From the sequence record MH243438.1: a DNA stretch of 64,000 nucleotides. One strand, written 5' to 3'. Every line of letters begins with the position of its first letter. The stretch's first letter is position 1. The position numbers and the translations under genes are program-made. Positions 60,558 to 64,000 of the stretch are shown here, in pieces. The notes beneath the pieces were generated by a model. It was not told the DNA's origin and ran no database searches. It saw only the letters and a list, made by a program, of their open reading frames with translations. The stretch is from Escherichia phage vB_EcoM_NBG1.

Positions 60558-60867
60558 CTAGACGGTCCACCATAGAATTGCATGCTGCCTTATCTTTAGG
60601 TTCCGCCACTGAGCATTCTAATATTTGCCATTTTTTATAGTATCTTTTAATTAAGGTAGACGCCTTGAACCTACTAGACGCCCCATCTTTTTCTCCGTCT
60701 TTATACGCGTATAACAATTTTTGTGAAAAATCTACTTTACACTCTTGACTTTTACCACAATAATCAGACGCCGTTCTGTTTGTATACTCCGTTACATCAG
60801 TATATGTAGTATTAGCAAGAGCGTTAAATGAAACCAAGCTAACTATTAAAGCCAACATTTTGGTCAT
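60520..60867 (-). CDS. small secreted protein with 4 Cys (vs position)
   Basis: 115 aa; signal peptide MTKMLALIVSLVSFNALA. Confidence 0.55.
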   Translation of the reverse strand: MTKMLALIVSLVSFNALANTTYTDVTEYTNRTASDYCGKSQECKVDFSQKLLYAYKDGEKDGASSRFKASTLIKRYYKKWQILECSVAEPKDKAACNSMVDRLVDSYNRGLAASD

Positions 60868-61406
60868 TCTTTTATTTCCAGTAGTTTATTTGATTTAAGG
60901 TAATTAGCCTTTTCTAGGACTTCAGAAGCATATTTACTTCCAGCACTTGTCTTCCATCCCGCATTATATGAGGATATAGCTTTTCTTATATCCCCGTTAT
61001 GTATATTTAACCAATAAGAAAATTCGATATAAGCCCATCTGGCTGAATTAGACCGCTTAGATAGCATTTTCTTAATTTGGGCATCAGTCATATTATAACC
61101 AAGCTGGTTAATTCTTGCCCTCATTGTTGGTAGATAATTTTGGAACATTCCATACGCATGGTGACCTTTCTTATCTTTAAGATTAATACCGGCAGATGAT
61201 TCCTGCCATAGTATTGCGGCCATTATGTATCCAAGTCCTTTCTTATGCATATTTTCATGCGTTTTAAATTTTCCGTCCTTAGAAAACTGTTCCCCAAACT
61301 GATAAGCATAATTCAAGTTATCGAGTTGGACATTACTAAAAGTATGCTCGGAGCTATGTGCTGATAACGAAAGAGCAAATAGACCAGCGAGTAGTGCTTT
61401 TCTCAT
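60864..61406 (-). CDS. secreted lytic transglycosylase (SLT domain)
   Basis: 180 aa; signal peptide; SLT motifs LWQESS, AYGMFQ, SYNAG. Confidence 0.7.
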   Translation of the reverse strand: MRKALLAGLFALSLSAHSSEHTFSNVQLDNLNYAYQFGEQFSKDGKFKTHENMHKKGLGYIMAAILWQESSAGINLKDKKGHHAYGMFQNYLPTMRARINQLGYNMTDAQIKKMLSKRSNSARWAYIEFSYWLNIHNGDIRKAISSYNAGWKTSAGSKYASEVLEKANYLKSNKLLEIKE

Positions 61407-61414
61407 GTTTACCT

Positions 61415-61873
61415 CTAGATTTTAATCACTGCTTTAGAAGCTTTTCCTGGTAGTCGTTTACTGTTAATAATAGCCATTCTGCATTGAAGAGTCTTCATTT
61501 TGAATGCCGGATTTTCGCGACAAACTGTAAGTCCTAACCAAAGATTTCCGTCAGTTATTTCTAAACGGCCTGGACGATACTCGACACCTTCGACAAAATC
61601 TTCATCAACATCTGGACGTGCCGGCATTGATAAAAATTCTGCAACTTCTTTAACGTGATTTTTTACTTTATGAAATAATTCAAAAACGTAATTCTCATCT
61701 ATTTCTCTCTGGATGGCACGATCTAAGAGATGTTGAGAATACTTGATATGAAAGCCTGGTAGTCCAAGAGACTTTGCAGCATCTTTTATACCGGCATTTA
61801 TTTTGCGGAACTCCGTTTCAAAGATTCGACGGAGTTTATTACGGCGGATAAAAACTTCCGAATTGATAGTCAT
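61415..61873 (-). CDS. regB: RegB endoribonuclease
   Basis: 152 aa from MTINSEVFIRRNKLRR, near-identical to remembered T4 RegB; ORF-track start at 61897 is a TTG. Confidence 0.85.
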   Translation of the reverse strand: MTINSEVFIRRNKLRRIFETEFRKINAGIKDAAKSLGLPGFHIKYSQHLLDRAIQREIDENYVFELFHKVKNHVKEVAEFLSMPARPDVDEDFVEGVEYRPGRLEITDGNLWLGLTVCRENPAFKMKTLQCRMAIINSKRLPGKASKAVIKI

Positions 61874-61880
61874 TTTGATT

Positions 61881-61930
61881 TCTCCTCTAGTTGACAAGTC
61901 TATAGTAACACAACTAGAGGAGAAGTAAAC
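61881..61930 (-). promoter_or_regulatory. regB early promoter (GTTTAC-N17-TACTAT) with perfect 13-bp spacer/SD inverted repeat
   Basis: arms 61881-61893 (regB SD GAGGAG) and 61911-61923 (spacer); -10 at 61902-61907; -35 at 61925-61930. Confidence 0.6.
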
Positions 61931-62229
61931 TACTCTTTGAAAGGAATTAACTTTTTAACTGCTTTAGATACTTCGTCACGAACCTGATGGAAGTTCTTGA
62001 GCTGTTCAAGGCGTTGTTCGTAATACGCAATCTCATCTTCTTCAAGACAATCGTCAGCGTCTTCTTTCAGATATGCCTTGTACTCATTAAAGAGGGCCCA
62101 TAGGCGGTTCTCAAAGTCATCAAGGCTTTGAATTTTCTTGTGCTTCGGAACAAGGCCAAAAGGATTGCTTTCAGTTATGCGTCTAGATGCTTCATAATGA
62201 GTTCCAAAGCCTGATAGGATTTGAGCCAT
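61930..62229 (-). CDS. hypothetical protein
   Basis: 99-aa ORF. Confidence 0.55.
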
Positions 62230-62495
62230 TAGTATTTTTCCTCAGGTCGAAATACTGCACGACATGCCCACATGCTGGCTTCTTTTAGATGTTGCTTAGC
62301 ATACTTAAGAGCCTGTACTGCATCCATATCTTCTTTGGTTTGTTGCTCTGTTTCATTTTCTTTCAAGATATATGCTTCTTCAATCAGAGCATCAAACAAC
62401 AATCCAAGACGGACTTCTGCATCTTTAATAGCGTTCACTTTACCGATTTTATCATCGGTATGCGGCTTGTAGCCTTTGATGTCTTCAATCGACAT
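62229..62495 (-). CDS. hypothetical protein
   Basis: 88 aa from internal ATG 62495 ([15 protein letters not shown]..), SD GAGGAAA; longer version overlaps the upstream ORF. Confidence 0.45.
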
Positions 62496-62709
62496 AAGGA
62501 ATTTCCTCATCGGTGGCAAGGTCATATTCGACCAATTGGATAGGCTCATTAATACCATATCCACGTACAGTGATATCAGTTGCCGGATAGTTTCCAGTAA
62601 TATCACCCATTCTAAATGCTTCAATGAATGATTGCTCGCCTGAGCAACTAAACCAGGCGGCAAAACATTTTAAAACATCTTCAGACCCTTCTATAATCAA
62701 TTTAGCCAT
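62485..62709 (-). CDS. hypothetical protein
   Basis: 74-aa acidic ORF. Confidence 0.5.
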   Translation of the reverse strand: MAKLIIEGSEDVLKCFAAWFSCSGEQSFIEAFRMGDITGNYPATDITVRGYGINEPIQLVEYDLATDEEIPYVD

Positions 62710-63071
62710 TATAGACTCTCAGTAAAGGTACGAGCGATAACGTCGCGCTGCTGTTCCGGAGTCAGAGAGTTAAAGCGAACTGCATAACCGGATACACGGA
62801 TGGTCAACTGCGGATATTTTTCTGGATGCTTAACTGCATCTTCCAGAGTTTCACGACGCAGAACATTAACGTTCAGGTGTTGACCACCTTCAATTTTAAC
62901 TTTAGGTTGATGTTCAATTTCAATTTCACGGGCATTCAAACCGTAGAAAATTTCCGGGTCTACAATAGCGTCTTCTTTAAAAGTCTTAGAGACAATAATC
63001 CGGGCTTGAGTACCGTCTTCAAAATAAATAGTGCCTTTGTGTGTGCCTTCAAGAATTTGATATGCTTTCAT
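62709..63071 (-). CDS. autonomous glycyl radical cofactor (GrcA/YfiD-like)
   Basis: 120 aa; glycyl-radical motif [27 protein letters not shown]; C-terminal half closely resembles remembered E. coli GrcA. Confidence 0.85.
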
Positions 63072-63077
63072 ATAACC

Positions 63078-63386
63078 TCAATTAGAAAATAAATTTATCC
63101 AAGTTTTTTCTTTAATCAAAAATGGGTCGGAATTAAACGCCATTAAACTTTGAGTGATTAATCCCTTAAATGGCCCATCAATAAATTCCATTTTGAAATG
63201 TGGAATACTAGTCATCAACCGTGCATTAGGAGCAGTACAAAGAACCTGCTGCCCTGCGAACGGACCTTTAGTCAAACGGTATCGTTTAGGTTTAAAATGG
63301 TAAATCTCGTAATTTTCTACAAGGGCCCTTTTATTGCATACTGGGCTGGTATAACAATATTCAAAAACTTCAATAGTGGTCATCAT
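63078..63386 (-). CDS. hypothetical protein
   Basis: 102-aa ORF. Confidence 0.55.
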   Translation of the reverse strand: MMTTIEVFEYCYTSPVCNKRALVENYEIYHFKPKRYRLTKGPFAGQQVLCTAPNARLMTSIPHFKMEFIDGPFKGLITQSLMAFNSDPFLIKEKTWINLFSN

Positions 63387-63922
63387 TGCATTCCAATCAC
63401 AAAAAATTGAGGACGAGCATTACCGCCGATGCAATATTTGCTTTTGCAACAGTGTTGGACTGTTTTAATATGTACATTGTAAATCTTATCCATATCAGGA
63501 GCTTTAATAGGCTCGTCAATTATATACAGAATACGAGAAAGCGTTAATCCACGGAATTTAGAACCTTCATTGCCAATAAAACTACGAACAGAATCAGTAA
63601 ATAAACGGAATCGAATATCGTCGCTAGAATAACGAGAAAATTCTTTTTCAATGTTGCCAGCAGAAATTTTAGCATAAGCTGAAGTATTAGAAAGAACAAT
63701 AACTGTTCCGCCATCATACAGCCAATTAGCAGCAAAGTTAGTCACAGCAATTGATTTACCTGATTGTCGGCCGCCGTCTAAACGAAGTGTACAGTACTGC
63801 TTGAGTACGTCTTCAAATGGTGGGACGTAACCGTTCTTACAAATTTCTTCTACTCTAGCATCAGAATGGTGTGTAAAAGCATTCATCAGGGATAGATAAG
63901 GTCCAGTTAAAAATGTTCTCAT
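63383..63922 (-). CDS. hypothetical protein with P-loop-like motif
   Basis: 179 aa from ATG 63922 (MRTFLTG..); GGRQSGKS Walker-A-like segment. Confidence 0.5.
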   Translation of the reverse strand: MRTFLTGPYLSLMNAFTHHSDARVEEICKNGYVPPFEDVLKQYCTLRLDGGRQSGKSIAVTNFAANWLYDGGTVIVLSNTSAYAKISAGNIEKEFSRYSSDDIRFRLFTDSVRSFIGNEGSKFRGLTLSRILYIIDEPIKAPDMDKIYNVHIKTVQHCCKSKYCIGGNARPQFFVIGMQ

Positions 63923-64000
63923 ATTATTTCTCTTAAGGTTGGGGCCCTTCCGTGGCACATGTTAGGTCCTTCGACTCGCTATGTAAACCCATTACCGCAT

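Follow-up and report, generated by a model that had tools for sequence, protein, structure and literature searches.

A probable T4-type early promoter and a predicted hairpin that pairs with the Shine-Dalgarno sequence share the same DNA upstream of the phage gene regB

Introduction

RegB is a potent nuclease whose synthesis is confined to the first minutes of infection. Its cleavage sites are intergenic GGAG sequences, rarely GGAU, and usually lie within Shine-Dalgarno (SD) sequences (PMC3014915, PMC1702504). The RegB/S1 target consensus, GGAGRAYARAA, has its most conserved A residues at positions 6, 8 and 11 and nearly excludes C (PMC1702504), and the enzyme needs the 11-nt site to be single-stranded, secondary structure being inhibitory (PMC1702504; PMC3014915). 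That T4 RegB cuts the GGAG of its own SD is experimentally established (PMC3014915 section 11; PMC2988021), work which these secondary accounts credit to Sanson & Uzan (1993) and Piesiniene et al. (2004). Among 35 T4-related phages the regB SD is GGAG (GGAU in RB49) and was cleaved whenever tested (PMC3014915 section 11; PMC2988021), and mutating or removing the GGAG of the SD raises the yield of recombinant RegB (PMC9409239).

In the T4 genes e, soc, 49 and I-TevI, hairpins sequester the translation start on long transcripts and a late promoter lies inside the hairpin (PMC3014915 section 29); regB is absent from that list. The promoter-early stem-loop (PeSL) cassettes of T4-like phages (Arbiol et al., 2010, PMC2839356; Comeau et al., 2014, PMC4122927) are repeated, sit at recombination junctions and carry a stem-loop that has been read as a terminator or attenuator and as a recombination site (PMC2839356, PMC4122927). 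Translation, ribosomes and regB go unmentioned in both PeSL papers (PMC2839356, PMC4122927), and we found no description of a regB hairpin in the accessible reviews or the PeSL papers, a coverage that does not extend to Sanson & Uzan (1993) and Piesiniene et al. (2004).

Here we analyze the regB leader of Escherichia phage vB_EcoM_NBG1 (MH243438.1) within a window, the whole stretch of DNA under analysis, of 64,000 nucleotides. The original prediction, made from the letters of the sequence, was a layered autoregulation in which the regB SD is masked by a hairpin in read-through RNA and cleaved by RegB in promoter-proximal RNA. We conclude, with a probability of about 0.6, that regB expression depends on the point at which the RNA starts, through an early promoter and a hairpin that occupy the same DNA.

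The regB locus

Over 851 bases the region matches Shigella phage JK36 at 100% identity, and about 150 other Mosigvirus (RB69-like) genomes are 95–99% identical to it. The genes at the locus are oriented on the minus strand, and the T4 gene order is vs.4 > vs.3 > regB > vs.1 > vs:

61930..62229, minus strand: upstream open reading frame (ORF) at the vs.3 position, 99 aa, from the ORF list and the T4 gene order
61415..61873, minus strand: regB coding sequence, 152 aa plus stop, start codon ATG at 61873-61871
60864..61406, minus strand: downstream ORF at the vs.1 position, 180 aa, from the T4 gene order

The regB product matches Pfam REGB_T4 (PF10715) over residues 3–151 of 152 (4e-69; 231.8 bits, the cut-off being 27) and is 78% identical to T4 RegB; in JK36 the coding sequence annotated as a site-specific RNA endonuclease is 100% identical. 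In an alignment with the RegB proteins of the lineages L001, L011, L013, L015 and L018, the window protein has both of the catalytic residues H48 and H68 (T4 numbering, PMC3014915). Across this alignment His48 and His73 are invariant, and His68, named as catalytic in T4 RegB (PMC3014915), is replaced in L015 and L018, the most distant homologues. A mechanical ORF call starts the gene at TTG 61897-61895 (minus strand; 160 aa), a codon inside the hairpin loop described below, and was rejected; ATG 61873, which is preceded by an SD, is the credible start. The coding sequence contains a single GGAG, at 61814, in a context that is not A-rich.

Upstream of regB, the ORFs are tightly packed back to 63958, where there is another promoter-like site, and a generic scan found no terminator-like site on the minus strand between 62800 and the regB hairpin. 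Read-through from the upstream genes is thus plausible, and RNA would then cross the junction between the upstream ORF and regB. The TAG stop codon of that ORF lies at 61932-61930 (minus strand), its G being the first base of the promoter's -35 box.

Several neighbors of regB are annotated in JK36 as "endoribonuclease" or "RegB domain-containing", namely those at the vs.1 and vs.3 positions and two further upstream, together corresponding to about 60864-63958 of the window. None of them carries REGB_T4, the Pfam match being restricted to the true regB, and the vs.1-like protein has a weak, sub-threshold match to an SLT transglycosylase. The 120-aa ORF at the vs.6 position (63071-62709, minus strand) contains a glycine-radical domain (PF01228, 2e-18), and its product looks like a stand-alone glycyl-radical cofactor protein.

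Promoter and hairpin in one element

The leader comprises the following features, in the order in which they are read on the minus strand:

61925..61930, minus strand: -35 element GTTTAC of a T4-type early promoter, from motif enrichment; the hexamer is conserved across lineages
61911..61924, minus strand: 5' arm (anti-SD) TTCTCCTCTAGTTG = UUCUCCUCUAGUUG, the first 14 of the 17 promoter-spacer bases
61894..61910, minus strand: loop of 17 nt holding the TGn (TGT), the -10 box and the predicted start site
61902..61907, minus strand: -10 box TACTAT, in the hairpin loop and preceded by TGn, conserved in the regB-leader alignment
near 61895, minus strand: predicted transcription start, placed at the usual 7-nt distance
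61880..61893, minus strand: 3' arm CAACTAGAGGAGAA = CAACUAGAGGAGAA, which holds the SD and is present in all regB transcripts
61882..61887, minus strand: SD GAGGAG, read from the sequence, containing the GGAG at 61885-61882
between G61884 and A61883, minus strand: predicted RegB cut, by the published rule GG^AG (PMC3014915, PMC1702504)
61875..61885, minus strand: candidate 11-nt RegB/S1 target GGAGAAAUCAA, by comparison with the consensus; identical to the RB69 site

On the minus strand, which is the regB-sense strand, positions 61924-61911 pair with 61893-61880 in a perfect inverted repeat of 14 bp, which a repeat search extends to 19 nt at 89% complementarity. The repeat was correctly foreseen as perfect, as lying at this place and as shared with the promoter spacer, its predicted length of 13 bp being one pair short, and the SD does fall within a hairpin arm, the 3' one (61887-61882). 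By its layout the element thus assigns the 5' arm to the promoter spacer, the loop to the -10 box and predicted start (the segment AGACTTGT separates TACTAT from the 3' arm) and the 3' arm to the SD, with ATCAAA between that arm and the ATG at 61873-61871. Also by layout, the 5' arm is transcribed from upstream promoters only.

The promoter has the sigma-70-type form GTTTAC-N17-TACTAT with TGn. In the window, GTTTAC-N16-18-TAnnnT occurs 21 times against 2.8 expected, with 20 of the occurrences on the coding strand just upstream of ORFs, and the annotation of Yersinia phage fPS-2 likewise places a predicted early promoter at this site. Judged from these sequence features, GTTTAC-N17-TACTAT is probably the T4-type early promoter of regB. 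A generic sigma-70 and terminator scan called neither a promoter nor a terminator at the hairpin; it missed the promoter because GTTTAC/TACTAT scores only 8/12. We also considered, and rejected, a plus-strand gene or promoter using the repeat: the TTGACA at 61892-61897 lacks a properly spaced -10, and no start codon follows the plus-strand GAGGAG.

The 60-nt hairpin segment folds at -21.6 kcal/mol (z = -5.1), and none of 200 shuffles folds as well. Perfect inverted repeats of at least 12 bp with loops of 3–30 nt number exactly three in the 64-kb window, all of them early-promoter/SD hairpins; 30 first-order shuffles of the window contain 0.17 such repeats on average and none of at least 14 bp. 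As the window repeat is perfect, both of its strands fold alike. The T4 regB stem has two G.U pairs, which form on the sense strand only (-22.4 kcal/mol sense vs -12.5 antisense), and L048 and L055 agree with T4, but L051 and L030 fold better antisense. The asymmetry is not general, being clear for T4, L048 and L055 and contradicted by L051 and L030, and because this folding-energy test is mixed we base the strand assignment mainly on the orientation of the genes and the involvement of the SD. The SD always forms one of the arms, the geometry relative to the start site is fixed and different stems occur in one genome, and from these three features we read the element as acting in sense RNA.

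Comparison with described systems

The cleavage half of the arrangement coincides with the autogenous control of T4 regB, with which it shares the gene, the early-promoter position and a GGAG-containing SD followed by an A-rich tract; for this layer there is no difference, and it was already known. The likeness to e, soc, 49 and I-TevI lies in an SD held in a helix on long RNA initiated upstream and an internal promoter that yields a short, translatable RNA lacking the 5' arm. At regB the SD is predicted to sit in a stable helix (paired in 2000/2000 sampled structures), and the predicted start site falls between the arms by sequence geometry. In place of the T4 late promoter TATAAATA the regB element has an early, sigma-70-type promoter, so that, unlike the late promoters, which take their genes from early-silent to late-active, the regB promoter is immediate-early and the switch runs the other way. 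The masked sequence at regB is also a predicted nuclease target, unlike that at e, soc, 49 and I-TevI.

With the PeSL cassettes the element shares the order of parts (an early promoter, a stem-loop over the -10 box, then SD and ATG), repetition within the genome, where there are three cassettes in the window, and a position at gene-swap junctions, here replacement junctions between relatives. It differs in that the PeSL stem-loops are described as separate from the SD, whereas the 3' arm at regB is the SD, with no U tract after it. In the GenBank record of phage SA35RD (L067, OL960577.1 61740-61788) the regB hairpin, without a U tract, is annotated as a rho-independent terminator by WebGeSTer, a label that is probably a systematic mis-annotation of promoter hairpins.

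Conservation and covariation across regB leaders

RegB-encoding loci were taken from IMG/VR, and T4 and RB69 from GenBank. The RB69 leader equals the window leader from the -35 box to the ATG except at one loop base. Pairing upstream of regB is kept in about ten T4-like lineages whose stem sequences differ, and the hairpin arrangement occurs in T4 and at least eight further IMG/VR lineages, each with its own stem sequence (example arm pairs from other lineages are TTTTCCTCTTGACTG/CAGTTAAGAGGAGAA, ATCTCCTTTTAG/CTAAAAGGAGAT and ATCCTCATTTG/CAAATGAGGAT). The arms of six leaders are:

T4: UUUUCCUCUUGACUG/CAGUUAAGAGGAGAA, with two G.U pairs
L028: UUUCUCCUCUUUAUG/CAUAAAGAGGAGAAA
L046: UCUCCUGUAAGU/ACUUACAGGAGA
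L035: AUCUCCUUUUAGU/ACUAAAAGGAGAU
L038: AUCUCCUGUAG/CUACAGGAGAU
L045: AUCCUCAUUUG/CAAAUGAGGAU, in which the SD itself has shifted to GAGGAU

Shorter hairpins are present in the regB leaders of L048, L051, L052, L031 and L055. No such pairing was found at regB in L047/L049, in L053/L054 or in the distant L059-L062, whose RegB proteins are about 40% identical; the hairpin is therefore dispensable, common but not universal. Uncompensated stem mismatches occur in the individual isolates L029 and L030.

Covariation was scored on a covariance-model alignment of 21 leaders, plain MAFFT having put the arms out of register; a first covariance-model alignment that included the whole window was discarded because reverse-strand and paralogous matches were mixed in. 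Nine of the 14 pairs carry double changes (43 cells), and pairing holds in 87.7% of cells. Covariation scores 0.340, compared with 0.109 ± 0.019 in shuffles, none of 500 of which reach the observed value, and sliding the partners gives no more than 0.053. In an arm-swap test, the mean helix length was 9.4 bp for cognate spacer/leader combinations and 6.2 bp for non-cognate ones, and none of 100,000 permutations reaches the observed sum. This covariation lies between deep lineages or whole cassettes, where both arms could be kept together by cassette exchange or by templated mutation of quasi-palindromes, with no selection on individual pairs. In every hairpin-bearing lineage the whole 5' arm precedes the -10 box, with the 3' arm beginning 8–13 nt downstream of the box, and from these positions it follows that the proximal transcript always lacks the 5' arm.

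Close relatives have unrelated genes upstream of regB, with homology resuming exactly at the -35 box (a boundary at window position 61934). Such upstream-gene swaps separate L020 and RB69 from the window and L028 from L029, and for many Mosigvirus records the alignment starts only at the -35 box, a pattern consistent with module exchange at promoter cassettes.

Accessibility of the SD and of the RegB site

The GGAG at 61885-61882 lies within GAGGAG, 8 nt before the ATG. As a RegB target the SD was anticipated correctly for the tetranucleotide itself and in part for its surroundings: compared with GGAGRAYARAA (PMC1702504), the candidate site GGAGAAAUCAA agrees at GGAG, A5, A6, A10 and A11 and departs from it at positions 7–9 (A, U and C). 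The 7 nt 3' of the GGAG thus give 4/7 matches, A6 and A11 among them, with U8 and C9 among the departures.

Among 2000 sampled structures of read-through RNAs of 101–221 nt, none leaves the SD and the 11-nt RegB site unpaired, compared with 6–17% of samples for RNAs that start at 61894-61896. Predicted accessibility in the proximal RNA is lowered by a weak competing structure (-6 to -8 kcal/mol) that pairs the GGAG with CUCC in the coding region, and a 47-nt proximal RNA has an open centroid and is essentially unstructured. The RegB site is thus predicted to be single-stranded in part of the proximal-RNA ensemble and never in read-through RNA. Taken with the covariation across regB lineages, these samples bear out the idea of structural masking in read-through RNA at the level of prediction.

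SD-pairing hairpins at other early promoters

The other two perfect repeats in the window have the same arrangement at other genes:

7458-7401 (repeat 7452-7408), minus strand: SD hairpin copy in which the spacer pairs with the SD of the 174-aa ORF 7403-6879
20207-20150 (repeat 20201-20157), minus strand: SD hairpin copy in which the spacer pairs with the SD of the 105-aa ORF 20152-19835

Their perfect stems are of 13 bp (-24.8 kcal/mol) and 14 bp (-21.7 kcal/mol), respectively, the 174-aa ORF lying just upstream of a cef-like gene and the 105-aa ORF upstream of dmd. The stem differences among the three paralogous cassettes are all compensated, and the GGAG sites of the two copies, GGAGAAUAAUA (7458-7401) and GGAGAACAAAA (20207-20150), fit the RegB consensus better than that of regB itself. 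In the first 76 kb of T4 (AF158101, L068/L069), both kinds of promoter hairpin are found:

spacer pairs with the downstream SD: regB (62797), denV (65413), nrdC.8 (53943) and motB.2 (8218)
-10-box hairpin that stops short of the SD: dmd (20612), mobD.2 (57990) and ipI (73939)

The design is a general feature of early-promoter cassettes and is not specific to regB, as the two further copies in the window and those at T4 denV, nrdC.8 and motB.2 attest. The sites cut by RegB include those of motB.2, nrdC.8 and regB, and denV is named as resistant (PMC1702504); for a relation between hairpin type and RegB sensitivity in T4 these cases are suggestive and too few for a test.

Window repeats that bracket the -10 box and stop short of the SD occur at 57828-57790, 53657-53625 and 18894-18860 (minus strand; e.g., CTTGGTAGGATTAT/GTAGTCCTACCAA), and these hairpins resemble the PeSL type. 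The 30-nt promoter GTTTACAACCAAGGATGGTTGGAGTATAAT is present in identical form at 9005-8976 and at 50996-50967 (minus strand), 42 kb apart, with a small internal repeat, AACCA/TGGTT, between its -35 and -10 elements. The T4 denV cassette, ATCTCCTGTAG...CTACAGGAGA, differs very little from that of regB in L038, from which it seems that promoter cassettes move between genes and phages.

A model for start-point-dependent expression of regB

The model that we favor combines what we observed here, namely the repeat with its folding energy, its placement in the promoter and its conservation with covariation, with the early promoter of T4 regB, RegB self-cleavage and the inhibition of RegB by RNA structure, which come from the literature (PMC3014915, PMC2988021, PMC1702504). 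With the anti-SD arm in the promoter spacer, the -10 box and start site in the loop and the SD in the 3' arm, RNA from the early promoter would begin about 2 nt before the 3' arm and have no pairing partner for it; its SD would be single-stranded and could be translated immediately. As RegB builds up, this proximal RNA would be cut within the GG^AG of its own SD, which is the documented autoregulation. Read-through RNA from the vs.8-to-vs.3 genes would instead carry both arms and form the 14-bp, -21.6 kcal/mol hairpin, which should shut 30S subunits out from the SD and, since RegB requires single-stranded RNA, should also deny the site to RegB. The predicted outcome is that RegB synthesis is limited to the short life of the early promoter and that longer polycistronic RNAs reach the downstream genes (vs.1, vs and the tk cluster) intact. 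For this phage we infer the position of the start site, the read-through RNA and the block of translation and cleavage.

The mechanism first proposed for this leader is in substance the best-supported reading, one half of it, self-cleavage, being already published and the other an instance of known T4 design principles. Cleavage of the regB SD by RegB is established for T4 and conserved wherever tested (PMC3014915, PMC2988021), and the RB69 leader is near-identical to that of the window. The term layered autoregulation holds for the cleavage layer; the hairpin would tie translation to the promoter from which the RNA comes and not to the level of RegB, and in that sense is not autoregulatory.

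Alternative explanations

Several other readings of the same element have to be weighed. The hairpin might serve translational coupling, with ribosomes that terminate at the upstream stop codon melting it and regB translation being tied to the upstream gene, as might be suggested by a stop codon 5 nt before the 5' arm here (5–13 nt in 15 of 16 lineages) and by the location of the SD pairing at the stem base, the end closest to that codon. When a stop codon occupies the A site, the stretch of mRNA that the ribosome unwinds extends only about 5–7 nt beyond it. By this footprint, 0–2 bp would be opened here and none where the gap is 9–13 nt (22 nt in L029); the stop-to-arm distance is not conserved, and short gaps between stop codon and promoter are typical of these compact genomes, so that we consider coupling decidedly unlikely. 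Somewhat better placed, although still improbable in our judgement, is a PeSL-type cassette in which the stem-loop mainly attenuates or terminates upstream transcription, the repeat is a recombination module and the SD pairing is incidental. Termination at one RB49 stem-loop was as efficient as at rrnB T1 (PMC2839356), the window has three cassettes that are about 80% similar, relatives differ in their upstream genes with homology from the -35 box on, the SA35RD record labels the hairpin a terminator, and several early promoters of both the window and T4 have -10-box hairpins short of the SD. Against it, the stem is followed by GAGGAGAAAUCAAAAUG without a U tract, and the 17-nt loop, the AU-rich stem (G-C pairs 6/14) and the tail AAUCAAAAUG, which lacks a U run, are not those of an intrinsic terminator, in keeping with a terminator scan that made no call. 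Recombination homology, moreover, needs no complementarity, yet complementarity persists while the sequence changes, and in regB leaders the SD is always included in the 3' arm. Attenuation or recombination of this kind is compatible with start-point-dependent expression and does not exclude it.

An action at the level of DNA, in which the repeat would form a cruciform or be a palindromic operator bound by a dimeric shut-off protein of early promoters, appears very improbable. The repeat is centered on the -10 box, both strands fold equally well in the window, and the shut-off mechanism of early promoters has been described as not fully understood (PMC3014915). However, the three window cassettes differ in the upper stem and yet stay complementary, so that one protein could not read all of them; the arms vary freely between lineages; and the G.U pairs of T4 work only in sense RNA. 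A 17-nt loop disfavors cruciform extrusion, and the loop here has that length. That a purine-rich SD and a pyrimidine-rich promoter spacer are complementary by chance deserves almost no credence: several early-promoter spacers of the window do start with T/C-rich runs such as TTCTCC, and a 6–8 bp core against GAGGAGAA could arise unselected, as the 6.2-bp average of the non-cognate combinations indicates, but the stem runs 6–7 bp past the SD core with a different sequence in each lineage, a perfect repeat of at least 14 bp appears in no shuffle, and the shuffles, the arm-swap test and the covariation together exclude it. A role as an RNase III substrate was set aside on general grounds, a stem of 14 bp being short for that enzyme.

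Implications

If the start point of the RNA does govern regB expression, the hairpin together with self-cleavage would explain a sharp pulse of RegB synthesis, and the hairpin would explain how longer RNAs carrying the downstream genes escape RegB at the regB site. Automated annotation marks such promoter hairpins as terminators. We suggest, tentatively and as a possibility we regard as less than even, that promoter-embedded anti-SD arms are general in T4-like early cassettes and set, for each transcript, the access of ribosomes and of RegB to the GGAG. Were this true, the inactivation of promoter-proximal early mRNAs by RegB, and its sparing of the same sequences in longer delayed-early or middle read-through mRNAs, would have a structural explanation. 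The same design at other early genes suggests that PeSL stem-loops may also act in translation and RNA decay.
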